IMG/VR virus record: IMGVR_UViG_3300025520_000001 | Location: 1-64,000 of that record | DNA from: a virus | Strand: one strand, 5' to 3' | DNA: 64,000 bases | Part shown: piece after piece, positions 3,853 through 63,784 of the stretch | How the letters are laid out: each line of letters begins with the position of its first letter | Position numbering within the stretch: position 1 is the first letter of the stretch | Translations under genes and position numbers: made by a program | Notes under the pieces: model-generated | What the model saw: only the letters and a program-made list of their open reading frames with translations | What the model was told of the DNA's origin: nothing | Database searches by the model: none

Positions 3853-3922
3853 TCCAAAGGAACACGAATCAATATCCCTAGATGTCTAGGGATTGATTCG
3901 GATAAGAATACGGTTCTTACAA

Positions 3923-4330: not shown

Positions 4331-4331
4331 A

Positions 4332-4826: not shown

Positions 4827-4859
4827 AACTCCTTTTATTTGTTGTTTATGATTTCTGAA

Positions 4860-5489: not shown

Positions 5490-5505
5490 AGACCTTAATT
5501 ATACA

Positions 5506-5652
5506 CTATGGTGTATCCATATATCGGGCAATCACCATTTTAGCAACTCTATTTCGGTCTGTTGCAAACTTAAAAGCCAAAGAGCTGCATAAGCGCAGAG
5601 ACCGAAGGATGCCGAGTGCCCTGTATACTGAAAGTACTTCATCTGGAGGCAT
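5506..5652 (-). CDS. small protein, LxLxS mini-protein family candidate
   Basis: Internal ATG of ORF 5506..5706. MPPDEVLSVYRALGILRSLRLCSSLAFKFATDRNRV fits the family motif. Confidence 0.3.
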   Translation of the reverse strand: MPPDEVLSVYRALGILRSLRLCSSLAFKFATDRNRVAKMVIARYMDTP

Positions 5653-5702
5653 ACGATCCTTCGGTCTCTGCGCCCACTGCAAAACTTGACCCTTAGGCAC
5701 GT

Positions 5703-6125
5703 TCAATAGTTGATTGCGTCATCGATGTCGGCGAAGTAGTGAATGCCGGGAGCACACGCTTCGCTACTGAGCTCAAAAGTGCCCTTAGGCGTCACGATTT
5801 CGCCCGTTCGATAGACAAAAGAGTGATCATGACTACTATAACTGGGCTTGTAACACATGTCGCCTATGTATCGGCTAGCGTAGGAGTATGCGTAATTTAT
5901 ACCAAGGGAACGGTTCAGGTAGAACTGAGCCAGAACCAAAGCCTTTGAAGTCCTGCGCTTATTGGTTCGATCTATGCCGTCGAAAGCATTAACGTTGTAC
6001 TGTCCCATAATCTGGAGCATTACCAACACTTGACGAAGCTCACCTCGTTCGCTACGATACGTCTTCTTCCATCCAATGATGGGCTTCTTCAAGCCCATTC
6101 CAGCCGGCACTTGCTTAATCGTCAT
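5703..6125 (-). CDS. hypothetical protein
   Basis: ORF track 140 aa; C-terminal CAPGIHYFADIDDA motif seen in other phage proteins. Confidence 0.7.
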   Translation of the reverse strand: MTIKQVPAGMGLKKPIIGWKKTYRSERGELRQVLVMLQIMGQYNVNAFDGIDRTNKRRTSKALVLAQFYLNRSLGINYAYSYASRYIGDMCYKPSYSSHDHSFVYRTGEIVTPKGTFELSSEACAPGIHYFADIDDAINY

Positions 6126-6137
6126 AGCCTATCCTTA

Positions 6138-7541: not shown

Positions 7542-7580
7542 TTAGTGTCCTTTGCTATGAAACATCTGGTGATACATCAC

Positions 7581-7592
7581 ATTATATTCGGA
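7581..7592 (-). promoter_or_regulatory. promoter-like box TCCGAATATAAT
   Basis: Minus-sense TTATCCGAATATAATGTG lies 40 nt upstream of the ATG at 7541 and contains a perfect TATAAT. Confidence 0.5.
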
Positions 7593-7599
7593 TAAGAAT

Positions 7600-8229
7600 T
7601 CAGCCTTCGTCATCATAGCTGCTGTCATTGTCGGGATCAGTTCCGAACAGCTTGACGCTTGCTTCCTTGATGAGTTGTTTCTGGTTCTTGGCGAGATGAT
7701 GCTTAATAGTCTCTTTCAAGAAGGTTTGGGCATGTTCATACACAGCAGTACGCATGCTTGACTGAAGCTCCCGCTTGAACATATCCCTTACTTCTTTAAG
7801 CAGGTTCTTCTTAGTATCCTTCAAGATGTCTGCTAATTCTTGCTGAGAAAGCAGCGTGTCCAGTTCTTGGGTGATCATAGCCTGGACTTTAGATGAAAGG
7901 TAGCTGGTCATCATCGACTGTCGACCGTTACAGTGGTCGATCTCCCAGCCATTACTCCATCGATTCTCGAAGCCAGCAATCTTCAGAACATTCGAGGCCA
8001 AAGTGCTCTTGAAGCCACGCGTGATTTCCTCGTAAGCCTCGTTTGCGAGACGATTCATGTCATTCTGAAGAAGTTTATCGACACCTTCTTCAAGAAGAGT
8101 GGCCTCTACGACAGCATCATCTTTGAGCTCGGTCGCGACCAATCCCTTCTTGGTCTTCTTGATTTCGATAAGTTTCTCATCGAGCTTAACAACAGTTCGA
8201 CTGTTAAGTGCTTTAGGCTTGTCGGTCAT
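7600..8229 (-). CDS. hypothetical protein
   Basis: ORF track 209 aa; lies between the MoxR and VWA genes. Confidence 0.75.
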   Translation of the reverse strand: MTDKPKALNSRTVVKLDEKLIEIKKTKKGLVATELKDDAVVEATLLEEGVDKLLQNDMNRLANEAYEEITRGFKSTLASNVLKIAGFENRWSNGWEIDHCNGRQSMMTSYLSSKVQAMITQELDTLLSQQELADILKDTKKNLLKEVRDMFKRELQSSMRTAVYEHAQTFLKETIKHHLAKNQKQLIKEASVKLFGTDPDNDSSYDDEG

Positions 8230-25873: not shown

Positions 25874-26185
25874 TTACTTCTCCTTGAGAATTTTATCGAT
25901 TAACTGCGTGTTTAAATCGGGGTGAGTGCCAGAATCTACAACCTGCTTCATGACTTCCTGATAAGTCTCATACGCCTCATCGCGTGAAGCGCACTGAACA
26001 TTGCACGTGAACAAATCGAAGGCGTTAACCGAGTTGTTGTTTTCCAGGTGGCCAGTAATAACCACTTGCCAATTATCTCGGGAAACCGGTTTGTTTTCAA
26101 CGTAGTCAACGTTCTGAACTGATTGAACGTATATTGCGGTGCAATGCTTCAAATTGAGAAAGACATCTTTTGTAAAGATAATCAT
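25874..26185 (-). CDS. hypothetical protein
   Basis: ORF track 103 aa. Confidence 0.65.
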   Translation of the reverse strand: MIIFTKDVFLNLKHCTAIYVQSVQNVDYVENKPVSRDNWQVVITGHLENNNSVNAFDLFTCNVQCASRDEAYETYQEVMKQVVDSGTHPDLNTQLIDKILKEK

Positions 26186-26502
26186 GGACGGTTATGGAGC
26201 CTCATGTAAGGATATACGGCCTGCGTGTATGTGTGCTGGTTTACCAACTCCAGGCGCCGCACGACATAAATAAAATGTGTCATGTGCTGACGCCGCTCCA
26301 TACGACGACGATTCCGGATGAGCCCGATGTCGTCGTATATCTTAGAGATGGCGGCCACTGGCAACAGGATTGGCCAGAGAAACGTTATCGCTAGCGTCTC
26401 ATACCAATGCAGTCGTTCGTGCTCGGGCTGTTGGTCAGTTAAACACGCTGTCATTGCAATTGCCGACATTACAATGTAAACGACTGCTAGGTAAATATAC
26501 AT
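26182..26502 (-). CDS. membrane protein
   Basis: ORF track 106 aa, two hydrophobic helices. Confidence 0.6.
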   Translation of the reverse strand: MYIYLAVVYIVMSAIAMTACLTDQQPEHERLHWYETLAITFLWPILLPVAAISKIYDDIGLIRNRRRMERRQHMTHFIYVVRRLELVNQHTYTQAVYPYMRLHNRP

Positions 26503-26964: not shown

Positions 26965-26965
26965 G

Positions 26966-27038
26966 TAGCGGACGTCGGAGTCGAACCGACTGTTCTCAGG
27001 TTATGAGCCTGCTGTGTAAACCGTTTCACTCGCCCGCT
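26966..27038 (-). tRNA. tRNA-Met: tRNA-Met/Ile2-type (anticodon CAU)
   Basis: Minus-sense AGCGGGC..GTG-AAACGGTTTA-CAC..GCAGG-CTCATAA-CCTGA..GTCGGTTCGACTCCGAC-GTCCGCT. 3-bp D-stem; one mismatch in the anticodon stem. Confidence 0.8.
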
Positions 27039-27935: not shown

Positions 27936-28415
27936 TTAGACGTACCAGGCTGGCTGGCCCCTTCCCTTGGCCCAACGGGCAATCTTTCGCTTCTCTCCGC
28001 AGTAATAGGCGCGATAGGCGACCACCGGGTCAGCATTCTTGTACTGATCAGGCATGCACTGGGCAAACGGCGTCATTGGTCCGCTGGTAATCGGAGGAGG
28101 ATTAGCACTGAGCCAGTCAATAACTTCCTGGCATTTATGCACTTTTTTATATCGTTCGGTGTATTCAGTGCTCAAAGCTTGAGCGTGCTTTAAGAGCCAC
28201 TGCCAGTTTGCTGTAGATTCTCGAGTCCACTTAGCGCTTGGGTGATTATAGTGGGTACGCTTATATGGTGCTAGTCCGGGGTCGTACGGCGAGCACAACA
28301 GCTGTACACTTTCTAGTGTCATCTTAACTACATGCTTGTCGGATTGATACTGCGCCGCTAGCACAGGGTCAAGGTCTAGTACGAATATGTTCACAGACCT
28401 TTTGCCCCGCGCCAC
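27936..28415 (-). CDS. conserved hypothetical protein (possibly pyrimidine-dimer-glycosylase-like family, unverified)
   Basis: 159 aa. LDLDPVLAAQYQSDKHVVKMTLESVQLL...THYNHPSAKW...EYTERYKKVH recalls a widespread phage/giant-virus family. Confidence 0.55.
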   Translation of the reverse strand: MARGKRSVNIFVLDLDPVLAAQYQSDKHVVKMTLESVQLLCSPYDPGLAPYKRTHYNHPSAKWTRESTANWQWLLKHAQALSTEYTERYKKVHKCQEVIDWLSANPPPITSGPMTPFAQCMPDQYKNADPVVAYRAYYCGEKRKIARWAKGRGQPAWYV

Positions 28416-28534
28416 AAATTCTTGCTAGCGCGCTTGTATGCATCATAACTGATAAGCTTTAATGTCGTTATCACGACCAAGAACGGGTACACGCACAGCG
28501 GGTTAGTTGTAGACCTGGTTTTATCATGCGCCAT
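28391..28534 (-). CDS. LxLIS mini-protein family member
   Basis: ATG at 28534 in ORF 28391..28597. MAHDKTRSTTNPLCVYPFLVVITTLKLISYDAYKRASKNLW... Confidence 0.4.
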   Translation of the reverse strand: MAHDKTRSTTNPLCVYPFLVVITTLKLISYDAYKRASKNLWRGAKGL

Positions 28535-28838
28535 TGTTACTTTTTTGCTGACGATTCTTAAACAGCTCCCATGGCCCAATTTCATTAGGTTCGTCACTTA
28601 GACCGATGGCGTTTTTATCTGTATACGGAAGCGCGGAATTGTGCCAATAGGCTTCATCCTCTTCGCGATACACCTTGATTTCATACCATTCGCCATCTGC
28701 GGCAAACGCGGTGCAGTTGAGTTCCGTATCGTCAATGGCTGCTTGGATGGCGTTTCGTAGGTTCTCAAGTGCTTCCTTGTTGCCCACAATAAAGGCATGA
28801 TCGTGATTATAGACTTGTGCGTAGATATGAAGTTTCAT
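28524..28838 (-). CDS. hypothetical protein
   Basis: ORF track 104 aa. Confidence 0.65.
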   Translation of the reverse strand: MKLHIYAQVYNHDHAFIVGNKEALENLRNAIQAAIDDTELNCTAFAADGEWYEIKVYREEDEAYWHNSALPYTDKNAIGLSDEPNEIGPWELFKNRQQKSNNGA

Positions 28839-35126: not shown

Positions 35127-35164
35127 TTCGGATAAGGGCGTGGGCGCGCCCGAAGCAGTGTCAG
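35127..35164 (-). promoter_or_regulatory. regulatory cassette, variant copy (CTGACACTGCTTCGG + CCGAAA box)
   Basis: Minus-sense GGCTGACACTGCTTCGGGCGCGCCCACGCCCTTATCCGAAACGATATTCG, about 150 nt upstream of the kinase ATG. Confidence 0.45.
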
Positions 35165-35236
35165 CCGTTTCTTATGATCGCTTGTCGGTATGCTTTACCT
35201 GTGCACAATCCTAGCGACACCATAAAATACAATATT

Positions 35237-35256
35237 AAGCGAACCCTGCTTCGCTT
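35237..35256 (-). terminator. hairpin with T-rich tail
   Basis: Minus-sense AAGCGAA-GCAGGG-TTCGCTT then AATATTGTATTTTAT, just after the stop at 35272. Confidence 0.4.
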
Positions 35257-35271
35257 AGCGTTGGGGCTCAA

Positions 35272-35505
35272 CTAGCTGTCCCGCTTCACTGCAATAAAAG
35301 TACCAACAAGAGTTCCTAGCGCAGCGGGAACCATAATCCATCGGTCTTCTACAATCAGAAGAGTGAGAGAGGCGCCGATGAGATAGATGGCGACTGACCA
35401 CAAGGATGCAGGAACTGCCTTCTTGTTTGAGACACCTGAAATGTACTTAGCCCAACCATAGTCGAGCAGAATCATTAGAAAAAATGTTGCGATGTATTTG
35501 GTCAT
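35272..35505 (-). CDS. small membrane protein
   Basis: ORF track 77 aa, two or three TM helices. Confidence 0.6.
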   Translation of the reverse strand: MTKYIATFFLMILLDYGWAKYISGVSNKKAVPASLWSVAIYLIGASLTLLIVEDRWIMVPAALGTLVGTFIAVKRDS

Positions 35506-35629
35506 GAACTTTTTACCAGAAAAAGTCTATAGTGGGCTTCACGGTACGTTTGATATGAACAAAGACCTAGATAATACACTGCGATTAATAAGTCGCGCAC
35601 CGCCACCTGATAATGTATCGTGGGCATTA

Positions 35630-35872
35630 TCATATCTTGACATTAACAGCAATAATCGGAGTAGGAATTTCAAGTACTTCTTTAGTGGCTTCTACTGTAA
35701 CTGTGAACGAAAGTCTCTTGCCAATTTCCTTAACGAAGGAATCAGCTGTGCCGTTAAAAGAAGCTACGTAACGGCTTATGGCGTGATCAGCGTCAAGAGC
35801 ATAGAAAGATTTCGGGTGACGCCAGGAACCAACTACAGTATACATTCGTCTCAGCTCACATACGCGTTTCAT
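35630..35872 (-). CDS. hypothetical protein
   Basis: ORF track 80 aa. Confidence 0.6.
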   Translation of the reverse strand: MKRVCELRRMYTVVGSWRHPKSFYALDADHAISRYVASFNGTADSFVKEIGKRLSFTVTVEATKEVLEIPTPIIAVNVKI

Positions 35873-35970
35873 GGTTTTTTAAGAAGAGCTTGAAGGTAGG
35901 CTGCTCCCATAACTATTCTAGAGAAGAGTTTCAAGCGACAGCAAACATCCAAAAAGGGAGCAAATTGCAT
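35869..35970 (-). CDS. LxL mini-protein family candidate (33 aa)
   Basis: Hand-translated MQFAPFLDVCCRLKLFSRIVMGAAYLQALLKKP. ATGA overlap with the next gene. Confidence 0.3.
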   Translation of the reverse strand: MQFAPFLDVCCRLKLFSRIVMGAAYLQALLKKP

Positions 35971-35974
35971 GTAG

Positions 35975-36103
35975 CTAGTGCGCACCAGTAACCACCAAAA
36001 AATGAGCGTTAGCGTAACTTGTTTTACAACACAGCTTCAATCGGTAGATACAGTCTAAAATCGCAAACACAGACGTGCGTGCATCAAGGTCTTTTTGGTC
36101 CAT
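35975..36103 (-). CDS. LxL mini-protein family member (42 aa)
   Basis: Hand-translated MDQKDLDARTSVFAILDCIYRLKLCCKTSYANAHFLVVTGAH. GGGAGA 12 nt upstream. Confidence 0.4.
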   Translation of the reverse strand: MDQKDLDARTSVFAILDCIYRLKLCCKTSYANAHFLVVTGAH

Positions 36104-36199: not shown

Positions 36200-36661
36200 T
36201 TACCCCTGCTGCGGAAGGAGGTGACGAAGGCTCTCGGGAATGGCGGCCACGTTCACCGTCTTCTTGGGCTTCAACTCGTTGATCCGCTTGTCGATCTCGA
36301 GCTGGATCTCCGACTTCGCCGTCTCATCGGTGGTGACCGAGAGGAGCGTGCGCATGGCCTTGAGCGTCTCGTCGCCCGAACCCGTGCGGGTACCCGGGTT
36401 CTTGGCCATGTAAGCCACATTGCCATTGAGCCGCTTGTCCTTGCGGAGCCAATTGCTCACGAGTCCGCTGACATACGCGGAGAGCTTGGCGCTGTCGGAC
36501 GCATCGCCCTGATAGACGATCTCTCCGGCCTGGAAACCCGCGATGAGCGCGGCCTGAACCTTGCCGCGCTCATCCTTGGTGAGCTCAACAGCTTCGCTGA
36601 ACTCAGTGGAACCACGAACATCACAAATCGCCTGAAAAACTGCATCCTTCTGCTTGGACAT
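36200..36661 (-). CDS. NWLRKDKR-family protein, paralog 1
   Basis: 153 aa. SNWLRKDKRLNGNVAYMAKNPGTRTGSGDETLKAM...LPESLRHLL aligns along its whole length with 58837..59292 and 62460..62924. Confidence 0.8.
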   Translation of the reverse strand: MSKQKDAVFQAICDVRGSTEFSEAVELTKDERGKVQAALIAGFQAGEIVYQGDASDSAKLSAYVSGLVSNWLRKDKRLNGNVAYMAKNPGTRTGSGDETLKAMRTLLSVTTDETAKSEIQLEIDKRINELKPKKTVNVAAIPESLRHLLPQQG

Positions 36662-41297: not shown

Positions 41298-41323
41298 GTG
41301 TTCTAATACGTTCGGAAATGTAT

Positions 41324-42527: not shown

Positions 42528-42544
42528 GACCAATGCTTTCTTTG

Positions 42545-42644
42545 TGGAGAAGCCGGGACTCGAACCCGGTTCAATCGCCGCTAACTATGCCGTAACCCAG
42601 CATTGCCCTTTCTGCGAGGCGATTACAGCGCTGGGAGCTTCCCC
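42545..42644 (-). ncRNA. 100-nt tRNA-like RNA with G3:U70 acceptor and non-tRNA core
   Basis: GGGGAAG...CCGGGTTCGAGTCCCGG-CTTCTCC-A. Acceptor and T-arm are canonical. The 59-nt core has a 7-bp stem AATCGCC/GGCGATT and a possible pseudoknot CCCAGC/GCTGGG. Confidence 0.45.
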
Positions 42645-42652
42645 ATTACTAC

Positions 42653-42985
42653 TTACTTCTCGAACGGCAGACCACAACCGTATTCCTTCTCCTTCAGCCT
42701 GGTCAGTGTGTTCTGCACGACTGTCTTGTCGACTGGTGACAACTTCTTTTCATCGAGCATTGCGATGTTGTAGCAGAGCCCACGCAGCCTCGCGATGACC
42801 TTGAGATATTTCCTCTCAGTCTTTGACTTCGCCTTCTTCTTGGACTTTTTATGAGTCTTCGCTTCACATTTGCTACACACTTTACCGCTATTGCCAATGA
42901 AATACTTGGTCCCGACTTGTTTGCTACACACCGAGCAGTAGGGTGCTTCCCAGCCCTTGGTGTCAAAAACAGTTACTTTAATCAA
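42653..42985 (-). CDS. zinc-ribbon, Lys-rich hypothetical protein
   Basis: 110 aa. CSVCSKQ...CSKCEAK. Confidence 0.65.
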   Translation of the reverse strand: MIKVTVFDTKGWEAPYCSVCSKQVGTKYFIGNSGKVCSKCEAKTHKKSKKKAKSKTERKYLKVIARLRGLCYNIAMLDEKKLSPVDKTVVQNTLTRLKEKEYGCGLPFEK

Positions 42986-43347: not shown

Positions 43348-43372
43348 GTGCAATTCTATGTTCGGAAACGTG

Positions 43373-48372: not shown

Positions 48373-48636
48373 GGCTTACGCGAGCTTATCGACGCACAGC
48401 TTAGCTCCTCGACGTGCAAGCAAATCCACGCCACGGGCGTTGCCACCGTTAGGACCGCCTTTCGCAAACCTCGTACTTCCACTTCTCCATGGCCGCAATA
48501 GAAGGCAACCACTTCCACGAAGTGCTGCAGGTTCACTTATGCCTCAGCCTAACCTACTGTAGTTGCTGTACTAGAGTCGTGTTCATACAGTAGGACTCTC
48601 GCAATCTGAGGTCTTCGTTCGACATGTGGGTATACG

Positions 48637-48684
48637 TTCGGATTAGTACTGTACTCGTGGGGTGCGCCGGCGTAGCAGTGTCAG
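48637..48684 (-). promoter_or_regulatory. regulatory cassette (CTGACACTGCTACGC + CCGAACGTATAC)
   Basis: gcgtagcagtgtcag at 48670-48684; ttcgga at 48637-48642. Immediately downstream (minus sense) of the 48701-48742 terminator. Confidence 0.55.
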
Positions 48685-51326: not shown

Positions 51327-51881
51327 TTACCTTATTCTTCCCGGATGCCACGGACGGACAACTATCATCCTGCGGCGAACTATTTGTTCCGGTACCGGAA
51401 CATCATCTTCATCTTCATAGCAGAACCAAGCCTTGAGGAAGGCTTTGTGCGTTACTGCTGTGTACTTTCCAAGTACAGGCTCCATCATGTAAATATAGTT
51501 GTGGTCCATACCACATACAACTGAGTAATGTCCGCCGCCATCGTAGTCCCACAGGACGATTACTGGACCATTGCGTAGTTCGGCTTTCAACTTTGAGAGA
51601 GAAGCGCCATCTTCCATGGTAGCGAAGAAGCCTGCTCTGCGGCTCGCAAGCACTAATCCTTCACTCCAGGTCCCGTACTTGCGAGATGCACCAGACCACT
51701 CGGCTACACGCTTTTCAGTAACTCTGAGTCCATAGAATCGCATGATACTGGTGAGCGAAGCAGGACCACAGTAATTCGTGGTCTGCAGTACTAACGGAAC
51801 CTTATGTTTCCTAAGTCGCTTGGTGGCCACGTGACCCTCTCGGGGTCTATTATACCTGTGGCATGGCCTCCCAACGACCAT
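51327..51881 (-). CDS. C39-like (papain-fold) cysteine peptidase
   Basis: 184 aa. TTNYCGPASLTSIMRFYG (Cys) and GGGHYSVVCGMD (His). Confidence 0.75.
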   Translation of the reverse strand: MVVGRPCHRYNRPREGHVATKRLRKHKVPLVLQTTNYCGPASLTSIMRFYGLRVTEKRVAEWSGASRKYGTWSEGLVLASRRAGFFATMEDGASLSKLKAELRNGPVIVLWDYDGGGHYSVVCGMDHNYIYMMEPVLGKYTAVTHKAFLKAWFCYEDEDDVPVPEQIVRRRMIVVRPWHPGRIR

Positions 51882-53966: not shown

Positions 53967-54014
53967 GCCAAAACTCCTTTCTTTATCCAGCGTACATGTG
54001 AATGTACGTTCGGA

Positions 54015-55243: not shown

Positions 55244-55357
55244 TTATACGTTCGGATACGCGCCAGTGTACCACCTAAACTTTTCATACCACGCTTCCTG
55301 TGCTATCTCTCTTTCAGTTTTACGAGAAATAAGTTCAAGCTTGCGAAGCACCGCCAT
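55244..55357 (-). CDS. LxLIS mini-protein family member, N-terminally short (37 aa)
   Basis: MAVLRKLELISRKTEREIAQEAWYEKFRWYTGAYPNV. The family-like sequence YDAVIDL continues upstream without a start codon. A CCGAAC box lies in its last codons. Confidence 0.25.
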   Translation of the reverse strand: MAVLRKLELISRKTEREIAQEAWYEKFRWYTGAYPNV

Positions 55358-55373
55358 CAAGTCTATGACGGCG

Positions 55374-55514
55374 TCATAATTTAGCGCGCGAAATCAGCAG
55401 GTCCCAGTATGCAACGCATACTTGCTTGTAGGTCTCAGGCTGCACAATATGTAGCTTCTTAAGCACTATCAAGAAGTATATAACTGTGCTCGGATGGTCG
55501 CGTAGTTGCAACAT
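55374..55514 (-). CDS. LxL mini-protein family member (46 aa)
   Basis: Hand-translated MLQLRDHPSTVIYFLIVLKKLHIVQPETYKQVCVAYWDLLISRAKL. Confidence 0.4.
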   Translation of the reverse strand: MLQLRDHPSTVIYFLIVLKKLHIVQPETYKQVCVAYWDLLISRAKL

Positions 55515-55524
55515 GAATCTTTAA

Positions 55525-55959
55525 TTAGTCGTTCAAGAAGTTCTTGACGGTGTTGAGGTACAGCCGGCGGTTGAAGAAGAGCTCCCTCACCGCCTCAACC
55601 CGAGGGTTGTCGAACAGAGACGTGTAGTTGCGACCGGAATTGGTATTCTTGAGGTGACCCACGAAGTACTCCACGAGGTCCTTGGCCTCCTTGAGGCCGA
55701 TGCGGTTGTCTCCGTTGATGGTGGCACCGCCAATCTCGCGGATCACCTTGATGCAGTCGATGTGGCTGGGGTTGTCGCTACCCAACATCGAGATGAGCTG
55801 ATCCAGCTTGACCTCGAGGTTGCGCTGCTCAACCGTGATCACGTTGGTCTGAGCAAACTCGTTCTGCAGCTGACGGAGGAGATCCAGCGCCTCAGCTTCG
55901 GCGAGTCGAAGTTCATGAGCGTTGAGGATGAGGGTGTACGAGCGCTTGAGCGTGACCAT
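55525..55959 (-). CDS. protein with ribosomal bL12 (L7/L12) C-terminal-domain-like segment
   Basis: 144 aa. [30 protein letters not shown] versus E. coli bL12 [21 protein letters not shown], with 10 identical consecutive residues ([10 protein letters not shown]). Confidence 0.7.
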   Translation of the reverse strand: [144 protein letters not shown]

Positions 55960-55988: not shown

Positions 55989-56010
55989 AAGAAAACAGAG
56001 GTCGCCTCTG
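55989..56010 (-). terminator. terminator-like hairpin inside a 5' leader (attenuator candidate)
   Basis: Minus-sense CAGAGG-CGA-CCTCTG followed by TTTTCTT. Lies between the CCGAAC box (56040) and the ATG at 55959. Confidence 0.45.
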
Positions 56011-56064
56011 TACTCTTCTGGTTGACATGCGATTGTATGTTCGGTTTAGTAACCTAAATTAGCC

Positions 56065-56205
56065 CTAGAACAGTCTGTGTCTAAGTCGAGTCATCACTAT
56101 TATTCCTGTGTCGACTTTTATGATTCCGAGATTTACCATCATGCGCAGCACATCGTGATAGTGGTTGTACTCGTCTCTAGAAATCATTGTTATGACTGAG
56201 TCCAT
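56065..56205 (-). CDS. LxLIS mini-protein family member (array III-5, 46 aa)
   Basis: MDSVITMISRDEYNHYHDVLRMMVNLGIIKVDTGIIVMTRLRHRLF. Confidence 0.45.
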   Translation of the reverse strand: MDSVITMISRDEYNHYHDVLRMMVNLGIIKVDTGIIVMTRLRHRLF

Positions 56206-56339
56206 GGTTTCTTTGCCATAGTTTTCGTGGCTTCCACTCTGCTATCTTCGGCGATTAGACCCAAATCCTTTAACAGCCAAAAGAAAAAGTATAGTCGCCT
56301 GCGCTGCGGCTGGCTTAGTTTTAGATCACTTTCTTCCAT
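56190..56339 (-). CDS. LxLIS mini-protein family member (array III-4, 49 aa)
   Basis: MEESDLKLSQPQRRRLYFFFWLLKDLGLIAEDSRVEATKTMAKKPWTQS. Confidence 0.45.
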   Translation of the reverse strand: MEESDLKLSQPQRRRLYFFFWLLKDLGLIAEDSRVEATKTMAKKPWTQS

Positions 56340-56452
56340 ATCAATCTTGAAACTTCAAATCTTGTCTGCTCTGAGACAAGTTTTAGGTCCAACATCAGCC
56401 ACACTAATCCGTATAGCTGTTCTGCACGCTCAACAGTTATTTGTTTAAGCAT
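56321..56452 (-). CDS. LxLIS mini-protein family member (array III-3, 43 aa)
   Basis: MLKQITVERAEQLYGLVWLMLDLKLVSEQTRFEVSRLIWKKVI. Confidence 0.45.
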   Translation of the reverse strand: MLKQITVERAEQLYGLVWLMLDLKLVSEQTRFEVSRLIWKKVI

Positions 56453-56478
56453 TAATGCTCATTGCTCACGCAGTTGCT

Positions 56479-56610
56479 TTACTTAAGCATCTTTGGGAGA
56501 CGCGCTGCAGCGAGCCTTGTCGCTATTTGTCTAGTATTCATTCCGATAAGCTTTAGGTCCACCATCATCCAGAGGAAATGATAGAGCGCATAGTATTTAC
56601 TTGGTTGCAT
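56479..56610 (-). CDS. LxLIS mini-protein family member (array III-2, 43 aa)
   Basis: MQPSKYYALYHFLWMMVDLKLIGMNTRQIATRLAAARLPKMLK. Confidence 0.45.
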   Translation of the reverse strand: MQPSKYYALYHFLWMMVDLKLIGMNTRQIATRLAAARLPKMLK

Positions 56611-56734
56611 TATACTTCTTCCTCAAGAATTTGCAGATCTTGCTCCTAGATTCCTTGCCGATAAGGCCAGCAAAGGACAGAACCCATATAAAATTGTTGT
56701 ACCTGTAGAATTCTGGCGGATTAAACAGAATCAT
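56597..56734 (-). CDS. LxLIS mini-protein family member (array III-1, 45 aa)
   Basis: MILFNPPEFYRYNNFIWVLSFAGLIGKESRSKICKFLRKKYNATK. Confidence 0.45.
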   Translation of the reverse strand: MILFNPPEFYRYNNFIWVLSFAGLIGKESRSKICKFLRKKYNATK

Positions 56735-56745
56735 CTAGTGTCTGC

Positions 56746-57081
56746 TCACGATGCAGAAAAAACAGAGAGACCGCAGTATGTACTGCCATTAGTCCCATCG
56801 TAGTTGAAGAGTGGATGCCCCATCTCGCCCAAAGCCTGAGTAAATGCGTGTAGGTCTTCAATGAAGAATCGGAGCATAAAGGGGCTTAGTCCGTCAGTGC
56901 AGAAGTCGAAGCTCACCAAGATGCAGTCAGGAGTCGGGGAAAACTGGAAAGCTTGAGTCTCAAGAAACTTCGAATGCGTAGCGCGCTTCACATACTCACC
57001 CCATGTGATTACTTCGGCCTTGCCCAGCTTTGGCCACATGTGATTGAGGAGCGCAACTGCATTCTTGAGTTCTGCAAGCAT
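56746..57081 (-). CDS. hypothetical protein
   Basis: ORF track 111 aa; AAGGGGA RBS. First gene after cassette c. Confidence 0.7.
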   Translation of the reverse strand: MLAELKNAVALLNHMWPKLGKAEVITWGEYVKRATHSKFLETQAFQFSPTPDCILVSFDFCTDGLSPFMLRFFIEDLHAFTQALGEMGHPLFNYDGTNGSTYCGLSVFSAS

Positions 57082-57117
57082 GCTGTCCCCTTAGTTGGTT
57101 GTGTAAGCAAATATCTA

Positions 57118-57177
57118 TTCGGAATAGCAAATAGCAGTATAGCGCCGGCGTAGCAGTGTCAGCGGCTATAGCCGCTG
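57118..57177 (-). promoter_or_regulatory. regulatory cassette (hairpin + CTGACACTGCTACGC + CCGAAT box)
   Basis: Hairpin cagcggc-tata-gccgctg at 57160-57177; 15-mer at 57148-57162; ttcgga at 57118-57123. Confidence 0.55.
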
Positions 57178-57281: not shown

Positions 57282-57662
57282 TCACTTCTTTTCGTTAAGG
57301 AGCTCGAAGAACTGCTTTGCTCCGTCTTCCTTCGAGATGATGCCTGCGTCGACCGCCAGCTTGATGAGCTGGAACTTGTCGTTGGGCGTCCCGCTCGAGG
57401 CCGGCGCCTTCTGCTTGGGGTTCACCCACGACTCGATGAGGCACGTCGGCTGCCGGCCGACGATGTAGTTGAGCGGATTGCTGAACGCGCGGGTTCCCGG
57501 GCGGATGCTCCAACGACCCTGCTGGAGCCAACCCATCATGATCTCGCCCACCTTCTTGCGCTGCTCATCGGTGATGACGAGGTTGCCGCGCACAGGCGCG
57601 TGGCCGAGGACCTGCTGAAGGGCGGTGCGGAGAGCGTCCTGCTGCGAATTGAACTTGTCCAT
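57282..57662 (-). CDS. diverged NW[LV]RKDKR-family paralog
   Basis: ATG at 57662 with AAAGGA upstream. VITDEQRKKVGEIMMGWLQQG and LNYIVGRQPTCLIESWVNPKQK parallel the family blocks. Confidence 0.65.
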   Translation of the reverse strand: MDKFNSQQDALRTALQQVLGHAPVRGNLVITDEQRKKVGEIMMGWLQQGRWSIRPGTRAFSNPLNYIVGRQPTCLIESWVNPKQKAPASSGTPNDKFQLIKLAVDAGIISKEDGAKQFFELLNEKK

Positions 57663-57876
57663 GGTAGTTTCCTTTTTTGTCAACTTTAAGTGGGAACCAA
57701 TTTCCCATCTCGTATCGACAGGTGAATATATGTTCGGATTAGTTCTTCACCTGTAGTTCGACAGCATTATCACTTCTTGTACTTATTCAACAGTACGGCA
57801 CGTGTTTAGTTCCTGATAATGGCGGGACTGGCGAGAGCAAAGAGAGCGGTGAAGGAGCCGATGAGATAGAAGGCGA

Positions 57877-58018: not shown

Positions 58019-58222
58019 TCACGTCTGCTTGTAGAAGTTCGTGGTCAATACCGACATGCGGTAGTTCTCAGTCTCGTCCAGCGTTTCGACTTCCATGGTG
58101 AGACCGTGGTCTTCTATGACCCGAACGCGGACTTCAGAGCCATCTTGGTAGCGGATCACACCAACTTGACCCACAGTCTCGTTTCGTCTCTTCAACTCTT
58201 CCTGTCGCTGTTCTTCGGTCAT
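58019..58222 (-). CDS. hypothetical protein
   Basis: ORF track 67 aa. Confidence 0.6.
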   Translation of the reverse strand: MTEEQRQEELKRRNETVGQVGVIRYQDGSEVRVRVIEDHGLTMEVETLDETENYRMSVLTTNFYKQT

Positions 58223-58701: not shown

Positions 58702-58728
58702 GCTTTGTTGGGGACAAGCGTATTTATG

Positions 58729-58807
58729 TTCGGTTTAGTACCGAGCCTCAGCGTAGCAGTGTCAGCGCAAACAGTTCCACCCCATCCCCTGTACGAGCGG
58801 GATGGGG
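58729..58807 (-). promoter_or_regulatory. regulatory cassette (hairpin + CTGACACTGCTACGC + CCGAAC box)
   Basis: Hairpin ccccatccc / gggatgggg at 58780-58807; 15-mer at 58751-58765; ttcggt at 58729-58734. Confidence 0.55.
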
Positions 58808-58836: not shown

Positions 58837-59292
58837 TTACTTCGTCTGTACGAGGTGGCGGAGGCTCGGCGGGAGCGCTTCCACGTTGACCTCGACGCGC
58901 GGCCTGAGCTCCGCCTGGCGAGCCTCGATGGCCTTCTGGATCTCCTGCTTGGCCGCCGGGTCGGTGGTGATGGCCAGGAGGCTCTTCATCGCCTTGATGC
59001 TCTCGTCGCCGCTGCCGCTCCGCGAGCCCGGGTTCTTGGCGACGTACTGCGTGCCGCCGTTGAGCCGCTTGTCCTTGCGGAGCCAGTTGTTGACCAGGCC
59101 CGGCACGTACTTGCGGATGGCCACCTCGTCCGCGTTCTTGCTGTGCTGCGTGACGCCGAGCAGGAACATCTGCACCACCATATCGTGGATCTGCGTGAGC
59201 TGCTGCTTGGTCGGCTGGTACGCCTCGCCGTTGCTCTCGCCCATGACCTGCGTCACCGCCTGGAAGACCGCTTCACCCTGAGTGATCGACAT
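58837..59292 (-). CDS. NWLRKDKR-family protein, paralog 2
   Basis: 151 aa. VNNWLRKDKRLNGGTQYVAKNPGSRSGSGDESIKAM...LPPSLRHLV. Confidence 0.8.
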   Translation of the reverse strand: MSITQGEAVFQAVTQVMGESNGEAYQPTKQQLTQIHDMVVQMFLLGVTQHSKNADEVAIRKYVPGLVNNWLRKDKRLNGGTQYVAKNPGSRSGSGDESIKAMKSLLAITTDPAAKQEIQKAIEARQAELRPRVEVNVEALPPSLRHLVQTK

Positions 59293-59508
59293 ACTGTTTA
59301 CCTTTCAACTGCATGCTACGTGGTTAGTGTTACGACTACGTTTACGGTTTTAGCTAAGCTTTATTGCTCGCGTTATAACCGTGTTGGGTTGTACTTCATG
59401 GTTGAACTACGACTACGCTTCTTACGACTATGATAGACTTTATTGTCCATCATCATCGTGAATGTTTTTAGGTTCGGAAACGTGAGGTAAGGTGCGGAAC
59501 TAATTACA

Positions 59509-59639: not shown

Positions 59640-59939
59640 TCACATGGTGTCCAATCGCTCGTCCCAGATATATTCAGTGAGCACCGAGTCAGTAGAGGCA
59701 CTGATGAGTTTTAAGTCTCGCAGAGTCGCGAGAAAGTCAAATACTACCCACACTACCTCTCTGTTTAACTTCCCCATGGTCCTTATTTCAGGTGTCCTGG
59801 TCACGTACACGCACCAACTCCTCTTGCGCGTCGCTACGCGCCCACATAAAGTCCATGACTTTTCTATCCGTCTCTGCCGAGATGATTCCAAGTAGTCGAA
59901 GTCCCCAAAGCAGATGTCTGACCCTGTAAACACCGCCAT
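59640..59939 (-). CDS. two-unit LxLIS family protein (99 aa)
   Basis: ORF track. Unit 1 ICFGDFDYLESSRQRRIEKSW; unit 2 VVWVVFDFLATLRDLKLISASTDSVLTEYIW. Confidence 0.5.
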   Translation of the reverse strand: MAVFTGSDICFGDFDYLESSRQRRIEKSWTLCGRVATRKRSWCVYVTRTPEIRTMGKLNREVVWVVFDFLATLRDLKLISASTDSVLTEYIWDERLDTM

Positions 59940-60133
59940 CAGATACCTTTATCATACCTCAACCTATATATGAGGATGCTCATTGCGTGGCTATCTGTCT
60001 TCCCGCTGATTAGCCCCATCAATCGGAGCAATAGTAGAAACAAGCCAATTCTGTTCGTGGCGGTGTGTTGCCACTCCCCACTCCCACCGCCACCGCCACC
60101 GTTAATTATGCTTGATCCCATTGGAGTATTCAT
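59939..60133 (-). CDS. LxLIS mini-protein family member (64 aa)
   Basis: ORF track. RIGLFLLLLRLMGLISGKTDSHAMSILIYRL, with a Gly6 run near the N-terminus. Confidence 0.5.
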   Translation of the reverse strand: MNTPMGSSIINGGGGGGSGEWQHTATNRIGLFLLLLRLMGLISGKTDSHAMSILIYRLRYDKGI

Positions 60134-60245
60134 GTGTGAACTTCAACATCACTTCGTGATCTGTCTTCCAGCTGACAAGGCCCAACTCTCGCATCAGGAA
60201 TAGCAGACGAGAGGTGCGGGTGAGTGTGATCCAGTCGCCCTGCAT
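60102..60245 (-). CDS. LxLIS mini-protein family member (47 aa)
   Basis: MQGDWITLTRTSRLLFLMRELGLVSWKTDHEVMLKFTHEYSNGIKHN. GAGGA 8 nt upstream. Confidence 0.45.
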   Translation of the reverse strand: MQGDWITLTRTSRLLFLMRELGLVSWKTDHEVMLKFTHEYSNGIKHN

Positions 60246-60299
60246 ACGAATAGTCCTCACGAGCTTTTACACCCTCCCGTAATTCCCATTAAGTTCGGA

Positions 60300-60650
60300 A
60301 TAGCTACTACACCTCTCTACACACCTACACTAAAATCGACTTACCAACGACTATCCTATATACTCTCCCTTACAGCTATACTAATACTCTGTAATACACA
60401 CTCTATCCCTATCCTCAATACTGTCTATAGGGGAAGGGAGGAATACTCCATATCAGTACTACTCTGTATCCCTAGAGGAGGGAGAAACTAGCCACTTCAA
60501 GCCTGTAACCTGCAGTATTTATTAGGAGAGGTGTGAAGAAAAGTCCAGTGTGGCCGCAGTCACTGCAAGGCCACCTGACTTATCAAGGGCTTACGCTTGG
60601 CCCCATGTGCGCCATCATGCTACATCCCTGTCCCCCTGCATGCCCATATA
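60300..60650 (-). pseudogene. decayed copies of the LxLIS mini-protein family (ORF-free stretch)
   Basis: Minus-sense MQGDRDVA*WRTWGQA*ALDKSGGLAVTAATLDFSSHLS* (compare 60102..60245) and ..VLRIGIECVLQSISIAVRESI*DSRW*. The family motif is interrupted by stops. Confidence 0.35.
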
Positions 60651-60654
60651 TCTG

Positions 60655-60680
60655 TTCGGAGCCCGGCGTAGCAGTGTCAA
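60655..60680 (-). promoter_or_regulatory. regulatory cassette, compact copy (TTGACACTGCTACGC-6 nt-CCGAAC)
   Basis: gcgtagcagtgtcaa at 60666-60680; ttcgga at 60655-60660. Preceded by a polypurine/polypyrimidine imperfect palindrome at 60684-60716. Confidence 0.5.
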
Positions 60681-60723: not shown

Positions 60724-60873
60724 CTAGGGAGAAAAGGGGAAGGATTGCCAGTCGTAATAGATCTTTCTCTTAGTATCTAGAGAGATTAGATGTAAGCGAT
60801 AGAGGACGTCGGCCAATCTATATAGCTTTATTCGAGATCCATGCAGCCCGATTCGAGATTGATTACTCTTCAT
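60724..60873 (-). CDS. LxLIS mini-protein family member (array I-h, 49 aa)
   Basis: MKSNQSRIGLHGSRIKLYRLADVLYRLHLISLDTKRKIYYDWQSFPFSP. Confidence 0.45.
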   Translation of the reverse strand: MKSNQSRIGLHGSRIKLYRLADVLYRLHLISLDTKRKIYYDWQSFPFSP

Positions 60874-61012
60874 AGTTAGGCGGAGCCTTGGCCCACTCCC
60901 TCCAGGTCATTACTATCACTTGCTCTCTGGTACTAAAGGAGATGAGATTTAGGCGATAGAGGACCTCATAGAGACTATAGAGGAAGTTGCGTTTAGTTAT
61001 GTTGAGCTTCAA
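60863..61012 (-). CDS. LxLIS mini-protein family member (array I-g, 49 aa, TTG start)
   Basis: (M)KLNITKRNFLYSLYEVLYRLNLISFSTREQVIVMTWREWAKAPPNYEE. Confidence 0.4.
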   Translation of the reverse strand: MKLNITKRNFLYSLYEVLYRLNLISFSTREQVIVMTWREWAKAPPNYEE

Positions 61013-61013
61013 T

Positions 61014-61151
61014 TCATTCTCTATCCCAGAATTGGGTCAGAAGATTGAGGCGAGTCTCATTAGAGATTAGGCCCAGGAGATAGAGGATCCAAGTGAAGTA
61101 GCGGATCTCTTCATATTTGCTTGCACTTATTTTTTGGTTCGGAGGAGGCAT
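61014..61151 (-). CDS. LxLIS mini-protein family member (array I-f, 45 aa)
   Basis: MPPPNQKISASKYEEIRYFTWILYLLGLISNETRLNLLTQFWDRE. TAATG overlap with I-e. Confidence 0.45.
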   Translation of the reverse strand: MPPPNQKISASKYEEIRYFTWILYLLGLISNETRLNLLTQFWDRE

Positions 61152-61285
61152 TAGTGTCTCCTAGTCCAGAGACTATTTATGTTCCTCATGCGGGTCTGGT
61201 AAGAGATGATCTGTATCCTATAGAGGAATATAGAGATCTTGTGGATGTGTAGGTAGGCTTCGTGGTTGAGAGTGTTGAGGTTCAT
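61151..61285 (-). CDS. LxLIS mini-protein family member (array I-e, 44 aa)
   Basis: MNLNTLNHEAYLHIHKISIFLYRIQIISYQTRMRNINSLWTRRH. TGATG overlap with I-d. Confidence 0.45.
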   Translation of the reverse strand: MNLNTLNHEAYLHIHKISIFLYRIQIISYQTRMRNINSLWTRRH

Positions 61286-61422
61286 CAGTATCTCCTGTCC
61301 CACAGTATGTCTAGGGTACGCATGCGGGTCTTACGGGAGATAAGCTGCAGTGTGTACAGCATGTAGCTTACATTGATGAGGTGTATGTACTGTTTGTGGT
61401 CTATGCGTTGAGCTATTACCAC
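61285..61422 (-). CDS. LxLIS mini-protein family member (array I-d, 45 aa, GTG start)
   Basis: (M)VIAQRIDHKQYIHLINVSYMLYTLQLISRKTRMRTLDILWDRRY. Confidence 0.4.
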   Translation of the reverse strand: MVIAQRIDHKQYIHLINVSYMLYTLQLISRKTRMRTLDILWDRRY

Positions 61423-61583
61423 AGCGGCATCTCGTCCAGGATGGAGTCATTAGCACTGCGCCTGGTCACCTCAGAAATGAGTCCCAGCTGCATCAGCACG
61501 TATATGAAGTCAGCTATCTTATAACCCTGCTGACGAGAGTACTTGAAATGGGGTTTCCGCTCCCCTTTGTAATTAAAGGTCAT
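61416..61583 (-). CDS. LxLIS mini-protein family member (array I-c, 55 aa)
   Basis: MTFNYKGERKPHFKYSRQQGYKIADFIYVLMQLGLISEVTRRSANDSILDEMPLW. ATG immediately follows the I-b stop. Confidence 0.45.
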   Translation of the reverse strand: MTFNYKGERKPHFKYSRQQGYKIADFIYVLMQLGLISEVTRRSANDSILDEMPLW

Positions 61584-61733
61584 TCAGTAATGGAGGTAGA
61601 TGGCATTGATAGCACGAACTCTAGTCGCCTCAGAGATGAGGCCTAGGATAGAGAGTACGGCCAGGAAGTCGGCCTGGCAGTAATACTCGTCCCAAGTAGA
61701 GTTGTAATTAGCGGTTGAAGTCGACACGGGCAT
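61584..61733 (-). CDS. LxLIS mini-protein family member (array I-b, 49 aa)
   Basis: MPVSTSTANYNSTWDEYYCQADFLAVLSILGLISEATRVRAINAIYLHY. Confidence 0.45.
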   Translation of the reverse strand: MPVSTSTANYNSTWDEYYCQADFLAVLSILGLISEATRVRAINAIYLHY

Positions 61734-61866
61734 AAGAGTTTAAAAGGGCTTTCGTGCGGCTTTCAGCGCCGCAGAGCCTCAGGAAGTACATGGTCCACAG
61801 GATGTAACTGATGGAGGTGCGCTCTAAGAAGGTGAAAGAGCGCCCGCGAGGTTCCTGCGCCTCCAT
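61708..61866 (-). CDS. LxL mini-protein family member (array I-a, 52 aa)
   Basis: MEAQEPRGRSFTFLERTSISYILWTMYFLRLCGAESRTKALLNSYARVDFNR. ATGA overlap with the stop of 61866..62255. Confidence 0.45.
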   Translation of the reverse strand: MEAQEPRGRSFTFLERTSISYILWTMYFLRLCGAESRTKALLNSYARVDFNR

Positions 61867-62255
61867 CAGTGAGAGTCGATGAAGGCCTGGAGCTCTTTCA
61901 CCTTCTCGCTGTAGAGGTGGATGCTGCTGCCGTACTTGTGGAGGTACTCGACGAGTCCCTTGGCGTACTCCTTGGCCTCATTGCCCTGGAGCGTCTCTGC
62001 CTGGCTGATGAGCTTGTCTCCCTCCACATCGCAGACGTGGTAGAGCTTGCCTTCGTGCTCGGAGAGCCAGCTGTTGGTGAAGTCTTCCCACTCTTCCAGC
62101 TCGCTGGACTCCTCGAGGAGCTCGGTCTCAGCAGTGACCATGAGCTCATGGTCGATGTAGCTGTAGCACCAGCCGCCATCCCAGGCATACTTGACGTGGC
62201 TCTCATTCACCTGCTCAGTGAACTGCTGCTTCAGCTGCTCGAGCTTGTCGCTCAT
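61866..62255 (-). CDS. acidic hypothetical protein
   Basis: ATG at 62255 (MSDKLEQLKQQF...) with GCAAGGAGCAAAGCC upstream. ORF 61866..62306. Confidence 0.75.
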   Translation of the reverse strand: MSDKLEQLKQQFTEQVNESHVKYAWDGGWCYSYIDHELMVTAETELLEESSELEEWEDFTNSWLSEHEGKLYHVCDVEGDKLISQAETLQGNEAKEYAKGLVEYLHKYGSSIHLYSEKVKELQAFIDSH

Positions 62256-62293
62256 GGCTTTGCTCCTTGCTAGGGCGTGTGAGCACTTATACG

Positions 62294-62356
62294 TTCGGCG
62301 AAGCAACTGCCCCTAGGCGTAGCAGTGTCAGCCGGCTCTGTACTAGCAGCCGGCTG
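62294..62356 (-). promoter_or_regulatory. regulatory cassette (hairpin + CTGACACTGCTACGC + CCGAACGTATAAG)
   Basis: Hairpin cagccggc...gccggctg at 62329-62356; 15-mer at 62317-62331; ttcggc at 62294-62299. Confidence 0.55.
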
Positions 62357-62459: not shown

Positions 62460-62924
62460 TTACTTCACGAAGGCCCGCAGGTGCTCGGGCAGCTTGCTGA
62501 TGTCGAGCTGGACCTTCGGCTTGAGCTCTTCGAGGCGCTTGTCGATCTCCGCCTGCACGGCCAGCTTGGCCTCGGGGTCGGTCACCACGGAAAGCAGGAC
62601 CTTGAGGTTCTTGAGCTGTTCGTCACCGCTGCCGGTGCGGGAACCGGGATTCTTCGGGGCGTAGGTGACGCCACCGTTCATCCGCTTGTCCTTCCGCACC
62701 CAGTTGTTGGTGAGGCCGGGGATGTACTTCTTCAGCGAGATCTCGTCGTTGCCGCCCGAGTTCTTCTGCACCTCGCCGTTGAGGAAGCCGAGGAGGATGC
62801 GCTCGTGGACCTTTTCCGTCTGGTCCTTGGTCCACTGCGTGGTCGACGGCACCGGGCCATCGAGCTTGCCATCGTTGCCGAAGACGGAGAGAACCGCGAG
62901 GTACACCAATTCGCCCTGAGTCAT
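62460..62924 (-). CDS. NWVRKDKR-family protein, paralog 3
   Basis: ATG at 62924 (MTQGELVYLAV...) with CAAGGAGCAATACC upstream. TNNWVRKDKRMNGGVTYAPKNPGSRTGSGDEQLKNL...LPEHLRAFV. Confidence 0.8.
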   Translation of the reverse strand: MTQGELVYLAVLSVFGNDGKLDGPVPSTTQWTKDQTEKVHERILLGFLNGEVQKNSGGNDEISLKKYIPGLTNNWVRKDKRMNGGVTYAPKNPGSRTGSGDEQLKNLKVLLSVVTDPEAKLAVQAEIDKRLEELKPKVQLDISKLPEHLRAFVK

Positions 62925-63008
62925 GGTATTGCTCCTTGCTTGGACTACGTTCGAGTTGGACTGCACTATGATGAACTCTATGCTTCGTTCATCGTGACCT
63001 AATATAGG

Positions 63009-63063
63009 TTCGGATGAGTCGGAGCGGGTGCGTAGCAGTGTCAGCGGGCATGGTGACCCGCTG
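63009..63063 (-). promoter_or_regulatory. regulatory cassette (hairpin + CTGACACTGCTACGC + CCGAACCTATATT)
   Basis: Hairpin cagcggg-catggtga-cccgctg at 63042-63063; 15-mer at 63030-63044; ttcgga at 63009-63014. Confidence 0.55.
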
Positions 63064-63740: not shown

Positions 63741-63784
63741 TTCGGTGTAGTGCGTAGCAGTGTCAGTGGGCACCTGGCCCACTG
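63741..63784 (-). promoter_or_regulatory. regulatory cassette (hairpin + CTGACACTGCTACGC-6 nt-CCGAACTTATATT)
   Basis: Hairpin cagtgggc-acct-ggcccactg at 63764-63784; 15-mer at 63752-63766; ttcggt at 63741-63746. Confidence 0.55.

Follow-up and report, generated by a model that had tools for sequence, protein, structure and literature searches.

Tandem arrays of predicted two-helix mini-proteins on the genome of an uncultured phage

On a 64,000-nucleotide (nt) stretch of viral DNA (positions 1 to 64,000 of IMG/VR virus record IMGVR_UViG_3300025520_000001; hereafter the window), five open reading frames (ORFs) of 43–49 amino acids (aa) lie in tandem between positions 56065 and 56734. This locus, here termed array II, raises the question of whether such short and partly overlapping ORFs are genes and, if so, what a phage might do with so many similar copies. 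The analysis described below points to a lineage-specific multigene family encoding proteins of ∼40–55 residues, each predicted to form a single antiparallel two-helix hairpin. The reading that we prefer, with a probability of roughly 45%, is that the arrays are batteries of mini-binders or effectors deployed for host takeover or counter-defence. All window ORFs and intergenic elements given with coordinates are on the minus strand, which is the coding strand of the region.

Membership, coding potential and predicted fold of the five ORFs

A sequence-only reading of the window had described array II as a second tandem set of the mini-protein family that forms array I, a group of nine tandem members at 60724–61866. 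The five minus-strand ORFs were all found where that reading placed them, each starting with ATG, and the motif strings quoted for them are correct; three of the four junctions are overlaps (14, 19 and 16 nt), and the other is a 26-nt gap. The protein encoded by gene 1 (56597–56734; 45 aa; FIWVLSFAGLIGKESR) is represented in public data by an identical sequence, P0001. Gene 2 (56479–56610; 43 aa; FLWMMVDLKLIGMNTR) begins within the last 14 nt of gene 1, and a GAGGAAG run lies 5′ of its ATG. Gene 3 (56321–56452; 43 aa; LVWLMLDLKLVSEQTR), the product of which is identical to the public sequence P0005, is overlapped by 19 nt by gene 4 (56190–56339; 49 aa; FFFWLLKDLGLIAEDSR). A 580-nt contig from the same phage in another sample differs from the window solely by a nonsynonymous single-nucleotide polymorphism in gene 4, at 56270, which changes K to E. 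Gene 5 (56065–56205; 46 aa; VLRMMVNLGIIKVDTG), which overlaps gene 4 by 16 nt and whose protein is identical to P0002 in public data, is the most divergent copy.

Profile searches upheld the proposed kinship of the two arrays. A hidden Markov model (HMM) built from 13 members outside array II recovered four of its five copies, genes 2, 4, 3 and 1, at E values of 2.5e-7, 2.5e-6, 8.8e-6 and 4.1e-5, respectively; gene 5 scored 0.014 against this leave-out model and 1.3e-9 against the full family profile. An HMM of the five array II proteins alone matched five array I members at E values of 3.7e-6 to 8.8e-3, and the same model returned only 0–1 matches in each of 20 codon-shuffled windows, showing that the similarity of array II exceeds chance. 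The core motif, present in all five ORFs, comprises a hydrophobic helix followed by L-x-L-[IVC]-[SG]-x-x-[TS], within an ORF of ∼40–55 codons on the coding strand. In a 47-member alignment (A4) the columns of this block are occupied by L (41/47), L (43/47), I (32/47), S (38/47) and T (30/47).

The conservation of the family was examined at the codon level. Among the aligned codons of conserved columns the entropy is ∼0 at position 2 and 1.5–1.9 bits at position 3, as exemplified by a Leu column (H2 = 0, H3 = 1.53) and a Thr column (H1 = 0.31, H3 = 1.77). Since the second codon position is fixed while the third is free, it is the amino acids, and not the DNA, that are conserved. Repeats at the DNA level are weak, amounting to two short pairs within the arrays, and Rfam holds no family matching the array region; a non-coding repeat or RNA element was rejected on the codon-position pattern together with the lack of an Rfam match. 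Synonymous differences have reached saturation across the paralog pairs as a whole (mean pS 0.76, compared with a pN of 0.60), and similarity is highest between genes that lie next to each other, as would be expected of old tandem duplicates retained by selection. Codon usage was best in the annotated frame for 20 of 22 copies, a result that is partly circular owing to stops in the other frames. Twelve of the 18 window copies start with ATG, the remainder having GTG, TTG or no clear start. From these sequence features the array ORFs are very probably protein-coding genes belonging to a real family, and they are presumably translated.

AlphaFold2, applied to gene 1 with an 18-member alignment, returned an antiparallel two-helix hairpin (helices at residues 6–21 and 27–44) with a predicted local distance difference test score (pLDDT) of 87.3, in which the L-x-L-I-S block makes the hairpin turn and caps helix 2 at its N-terminal end. 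Residues at conserved positions, namely F/L, L, V, L, L, L, I, S, T and A, are either hydrophobic or helix-capping. An i, i+3/4, i+7 spacing separates the hydrophobic columns (F/L, L, V, L and A, L/I, W), which would form the helix–helix core; the surface columns are unconstrained. The model thus suggests a layout in which a variable N-terminal tail precedes hydrophobic helix 1, the L-x-L-I-S turn (with the Ser capping helix 2), T-[R/Y] and helix 2, the last of which is often basic with its end near a Trp. No transmembrane segment was evident, as no 19-residue Kyte–Doolittle window reaches 1.6 (the maximum is ≤1.54 in 18/18 copies), and the hydrophobic helix is broken up by charged residues. 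Small membrane proteins such as holins, type I toxins and high-light-inducible proteins were rejected on this hydrophobicity profile. Basic proteins predominate, with 14 of the 18 copies displaying an isoelectric point (pI) of 9.2–10.4 and a net charge of up to +6.5, the other four being acidic or neutral.

The family profile found no match above noise in Pfam (none at E values up to 10), PHROGs, NCBIfam, PADLOC or PDB sequences. An exhaustive HMMER profile search of 1.84 billion protein representatives recovered only this phage's own proteins and one spurious repeat protein, and word-indexed homolog searches with alignments A1 and A4 yielded self matches only; A1 does not contain any conserved 7–10-mer. 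These empty searches reflect the fact that gene callers annotated only some of the copies in related phages. No close cultured phage emerged either, as megablast of the 54–64 kb region and tblastn of a 168-aa neighbour retrieved nothing from INPHARED.

Copies elsewhere in the window and in related phages

Iteration of the profile defined 18 clear family members, all between 55.2 and 61.9 kb of the window. Inclusion of sequences from relatives raised the number of window matches to 24, all 24 on the minus strand, and, with ∼8 divergent members added to the 18 clear ones, the 64 kb carry ∼26 copies. Two members lie just downstream of array II (55244–55514), one of 46 aa that is weak (55374–55514) and one of 38 aa that is clear (55244–55360); in the leave-out search the stretch 55377–55520 behaved as a weak member (E 0.034). 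In addition to arrays I and II, there is a four-gene array at 59640–60260, consisting of 59640–59807, 59788–59955, 59939–60133 and 60102–60260, and a loose array of four divergent members at 35161–36103 (35975–36103, 35869–35985, 35502–35633 and 35161–35271) that directly follows a 153-aa gene (36200–36661). Further divergent copies were identified by profile matches at 28391–28597, 26182–26502 and 5506–5706. The second of these is a 106-aa ORF in which the C-terminal 30 residues match the profile at E 1e-7 and are preceded by a hydrophobic N-terminal part; it may represent a hairpin fused to a membrane anchor.

Related phage contigs of ∼110–175 kb, fetched through homologs of a neighbouring ∼150-aa multi-copy protein, were scanned as six-frame translations with the family profile. 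Matches numbered 13 in the relative L004, 11 in L006 and 14 in L007, and were always on the locally coding strand. Array size across L002, L004, L006, L007, L013 and L014 ranges from 2 to ∼23 copies. The largest is in L007, where an ORF listing of positions 2817–6033 (minus strand of the locus) contains ∼23 consecutive ATG-initiated mini-genes of 36–68 aa, while L004 carries ∼12 family copies between cassette-type genes. L002 derives from the phage studied here, and its array at ∼5900–8100 lies just past the end of the window on the opposite strand. From these sequences the mini-protein family appears to be a hallmark of a clade of uncultured phages with genomes of ∼160–175 kb.

The arrays and the genes that flank them differ in evolutionary tempo. 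When the window was compared with the relatives by BLAST, none of the array II copies had a match, and only 2 of the 19 small genes tested did so, both from array I and over stretches of 31–33 residues. Identity of flanking genes, by comparison, lies in the range 50–75%, as illustrated by 57282–57683 (70%), 58019–58222 (63%) and 58837–59292 (75%). Positions and sizes of the arrays also vary between relatives. The lack of BLAST counterparts, together with these differences in position and size, points to rapid birth, death and divergence of copies on a fixed scaffold.

Conserved cassettes and presumed transcription units

Array II lies directly downstream (11-nt gap) of a 111-aa gene at 56746–57081, which itself comes after an intergenic cassette, cassette c, at ∼57111–57177. 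Likewise array I follows a 129-aa gene (61866–62255) and cassette f, the motif of which is at 62317–62331, the whole lead unit spanning 61866–62331. The sequence-only reading had seen in this a recurring design of a cassette, one gene of ∼110–130 aa and then an array. As a positional pattern the proposal stands; as a fixed design it does not, since arrays I and II have unrelated genes in the lead position and elsewhere an array can lack such a gene. The 111-aa protein has no Pfam or PHROGs match and no ortholog in the relatives, the 129-aa protein has a 34%-identical homolog in L007, and the two display no detectable similarity to each other. A comparable arrangement occurs in L004, where a cassette downstream of the ortholog of 57282–57683 is followed by a 100-aa gene and three family members; the 100-aa protein is not similar to that encoded by 56746–57081. 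The four-gene array at 59640–60260 has a cassette upstream (60666–60680) with no lead gene between, and a box, TCCGAACTTA, is located ahead of the array at 60290–60299. The 405-nt spacer between this cassette and the array (60261–60665) contains no ORF and is purine-rich and repetitive, with GGGAG and AGAG runs; its folding is no better than that of shuffled sequences (z = 0.10).

The cassettes comprise a stem-loop with a GUCAG/CUGAC base and a variable upper stem showing compensating changes, after which comes the invariant tail ACTGCTACGC (ACUGCUACGC). In 20 of 36 cassette instances the stem has 5 or more contiguous base pairs, compared with 4.0 in shuffles, and 18 distinct arm sequences are represented. 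All but two of the 15 loci retrieved contain an exact copy of the 14-mer TGACACTGCTACGC, which is always on the coding strand; they include relatives in which the homolog of the ∼150-aa protein is only ∼40% identical. The 14-mer was not found on the strand that carries the large opposite-strand arrays of relatives; the large arrays of L007 and L002 run divergently from the cassette-bearing units. In the window the cassette motif is present at 63752–63766, 63030–63044, 62317–62331, 60666–60680, 58751–58765, 57148–57162, 48670–48684 and 35150–35164. Cassette c itself (57111–57177) displays the stem-loop CAGCGGC-TATA-GCCGCTG, the invariant tail within CTGACACTGCTACGC (57148–57162) and a CCGAAT-AGATAT box at ∼57111–57122. 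The element could be a terminator, a processing site or an unusual promoter element.

A CCGAAC-N-TAnAnn box occurs 6–35 nt after the cassette tail. The form TCCGAACNTA has nine occurrences where 0.38 would be expected, every one of them on the minus strand, at 41307–41316, 43357–43366, 48633–48642, 54005–54014, 55247–55256, 57729–57738, 59469–59478, 60290–60299 and 63005–63014, with variants at 56037–56050 and 58726–58739. The promoter-like box, (ACTAAW)CCGAAC-N-TAnAnn, lies 30–70 nt 5′ of start codons, and its distance from the upstream 14-mer does not match the −35/−10 spacing of sigma-70 promoters. The interval 56065–57100 contains neither a promoter-like box nor a minus-strand terminator-like site. 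Beyond gene 5, the presumed end of the array II unit (55995–56050) carries the box ACTAAACCGAACATACAAT (56037–56050) and then a 7-bp GC-rich hairpin followed by TTTTC (55995–56011), ahead of a 144-aa gene (55525–55959).

Given the tight spacing of the genes and the absence of internal promoter-like and terminator-like sites, array II can reasonably be regarded as part of one transcription unit. The 111-aa gene and the five mini-protein genes would most likely be expressed as a single polycistronic unit, with transcription starting at the stem-loop/CCGAAC-TATA cassette (∼57111–57177), and the overlapping stop and start codons may provide translational coupling. By the same sequence argument each array would be co-transcribed from its cassette.

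The surrounding window carries genes for ribonucleotide reductase, an ATP-dependent DNA ligase (at best ∼35% identical to that of known phages), ThyX and an HNH endonuclease, together with 10 tRNAs, and nearly all ORFs of at least 150 aa either belong to the minus strand or arise as antisense shadows of ORFs there. Proteins identical to those of the window are present on a ∼172.6-kb contig from the Joint Genome Institute (JGI). ARAGORN called a minus-strand transfer-messenger RNA (tmRNA) at 42544–42692, with the tag ASQKGQCWVTA, amid scattered tRNA genes; at the gathering threshold Rfam did not confirm the tmRNA and reported 9 rather than 10 tRNAs, the tRNA-Met at 26965–27038 being the one missing. 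The ∼150-aa protein used to fetch relatives belongs to a GC-rich multi-copy family, with members at 36200–36661, 58837–59292 and 62460–62966 and possibly 57282–57683, and has the invariant pattern YxPGLxxNWxRKD...KNPGSRxGxGDE. Its high GC content gives rise to long antisense ORFs. More than 300 metagenomic homologs are known, all hypothetical. The AlphaFold2 model of this protein (pLDDT 85) had no PDB fold match, the family is in neither Pfam nor PHROGs, and the sole BFVD match was an uncharacterized homolog from an uncultured phage. The window also encodes a stand-alone Peptidase_C39-like (papain-fold) protein of 184 aa (51327–51881; E 8.6e-12).

Possible functions of the arrays

What, then, might so many copies of a hairpin do? 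The closest paralogs being neighbours, the family likely grew by tandem duplication. Conservation confined to the core, combined with fast turnover, is the pattern expected of a scaffold in which each copy recognizes a different partner. It is these two features, and the setting of the arrays among small non-structural genes between repeated regulatory elements, that lead us to favour mini-binders. The conserved hairpin would present variable surfaces and tails to targets in the host or in competing elements, and the proteins would probably act as dimers or dock their hydrophobic face on a target. Phage proteins of <100 aa are frequent mediators of phage–host interactions (reviewed in PMC11323111). 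Taken separately from the existence of the family, the mini-binder role is a tentative assignment, with the odds leaning somewhat against it.

Large phages are already known to carry lineage-specific expansions in which small genes stand in tandem. In Bacillus phage G a small zinc ribbon has undergone a lineage-specific expansion to ∼35 copies, for which roles as specific binders or regulators were proposed (Iyer et al. 2021, PMC7824862). As in phage G, a very small domain has here been amplified to dozens of copies in one large phage lineage; in contrast to the zinc ribbon, however, the mini-proteins are helical hairpins without Cys or His ligands, they are encoded in tight overlapping tandem arrays beside conserved intergenic cassettes, and the family spans a clade of uncultured ∼160–175-kb phages. 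The host-takeover module of Bacillus phage SPO1 comprises ∼24 small early genes, for the most part not related to one another, among which promoters and terminators recur. The two systems share small genes in short operons parted by repeated regulatory elements, presumed to be host-directed, but differ in that the mini-proteins are paralogs of one fold. The literature searched offered only general analogies of this kind, and no described counterpart of the fold family, its scale or its association with the very strongly conserved stem-loop/14-mer cassettes was found.

The proteins could instead be small basic nucleic-acid binders, such as RNA chaperones, specific transcription factors or structural DNA-binding proteins, in which case amplification would raise their dosage or provide many binding specificities. 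The pI of 9.2–10.4 in 14 of 18 copies, the frequent abundance of Arg and Lys in helix 2, and the interleaving of the arrays with highly conserved regulatory DNA or RNA elements would all suit such a role, and comparable functions have been proposed for the expanded zinc ribbons of phage G (PMC7824862). The family does not, however, conserve any basic residue throughout, and many copies have Y, H, D or W in place of the Arg after the Thr; four of the window copies are acidic or neutral, and no DNA- or RNA-binding family was matched. We therefore consider this explanation unlikely. The SAP/HeH fold, with ∼35 residues, two helices and a short Gly-containing turn, resembles the mini-proteins by eye in its hydrophobic and basic spacing, but its Gly and basic residue are not conserved across the mini-protein family. 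A SAP, HeH or Rho_N motif was rejected, as hhalign of A4 against five manually entered SAP or Rho_N motifs gave a probability of 0.07% and there was no Pfam SAP, HeH or Rho_N match. It is more improbable still that the mini-proteins are packaged internal or ejected virion proteins, in which the conserved segment would direct incorporation, as a signal or as a fold, while the variable parts would counter host nucleases on entry. T4-like phages do have variable loci of this type, in which tandem small genes sharing a short conserved segment are rapidly replaced between relatives, and fast-diversifying tandem small genes with one common segment, encoding proteins whose basic charge is compatible with co-packaging with DNA, fit that description. 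The common part of T4 internal proteins, however, is only an N-terminal capsid-targeting peptide attached to larger cargo domains. In the mini-proteins the conserved part is the whole fold and nearly the whole protein, leaving no separate cargo; the alignment shows no conserved N-terminal targeting or cleavage motif, and the arrays lie amid non-structural small genes, far from any recognizable structural gene in the window.

The Peptidase_C39 domain gene at 51327–51881 (E 8.6e-12), ∼4.5 kb from array II, raises the prospect that the arrays encode precursors akin to ribosomally synthesized and post-translationally modified peptides (RiPPs) or bacteriocins, which the peptidase would cut. Prochlorosins, which form multi-copy precursor families with a shared segment and variable ends, resemble the tandem short ORFs in this respect. 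A conserved double-glycine site (GG, GA or GS), of the kind preceded by an L-x-x-E-L-x-x-I-type leader at the N-terminus, is however absent from alignments A1 and A4. The frequent Gly (19/47) follows a Leu, and half of the copies have K, N, D, Q or E in its place; the conserved block lies in the middle of the protein, with no N-terminal leader joined to a hypervariable core, and the AlphaFold2 fold is compact and confident rather than disordered. Furthermore, the surroundings of the arrays showed no transporter or modification enzyme, and the peptidase appears to be in a different transcription unit, with several genes and promoter-like boxes between. On the motifs RiPP precursors for the C39 peptidase were rejected, and the broader precursor explanation is highly improbable. 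Least credible of all is the view that the ORFs are not genes, being either chance ORFs over a repeated non-coding element or the remnants of a frameshift-broken gene for a long repeat protein. The ORFs are indeed very short, several lack a clear Shine–Dalgarno sequence, and gene callers skipped many copies in the relatives. Neither version, however, accounts for a second codon position that is fixed while the third is free, for weak DNA-level repeats or for the empty Rfam search. Every unit in array II possesses both an ATG and a stop codon, and a length of ∼40–55 codons is stable in different frames and in several phages whose flanking proteins are 40–75% identical.

Several observations weigh against the preferred interpretation of the arrays as host-directed binders encoded in cassette-driven units. 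Gene 5 (56065–56205) is the weakest member, its leave-out HMM score (E 0.014) being marginal. The basic charge of 14 of the 18 copies suits nucleic-acid binding equally well as protein binding. Foldseek comparison of the hairpin with the PDB retrieved only generic hairpins, all at E > 1, and a two-helix hairpin is too simple for such searches to give functional hints. Fast divergence could mean relaxed constraint instead of an arms race; dN/dS, the ratio of nonsynonymous to synonymous substitution rates, is not measurable, as there are no alignable orthologs and the paralogs are synonymously saturated. The hairpin beyond array II lies downstream of a promoter-like box and may be a terminator or a stem in the 5′ untranslated region, which makes the end of the unit ambiguous.

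An extension of the mini-binder interpretation, which we regard as doubtful, is that the clade keeps a self-renewing library of 25–40 two-helix mini-binders per genome, the scaffold of hydrophobic core and LxLIS turn being fixed, the surfaces reshuffled by tandem birth and death and each copy neutralizing a different host defence or takeover target. The finding also reveals a gap in annotation, gene calling having missed most of the copies in related contigs. The recurring stem-loop/14-mer/CCGAAC-TATA cassettes offer a handle for mapping transcription units in a clade without a cultured member. If it exists, the library would parallel, in phages, the multigene families of large eukaryotic viruses, and would have been largely overlooked because gene callers skip most copies. 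Should the arrays be batteries of diversified mini-binders, they would provide a compact natural scaffold for protein recognition, with ∼35 structured residues, and a new example of gene amplification in phages driven by an arms race.

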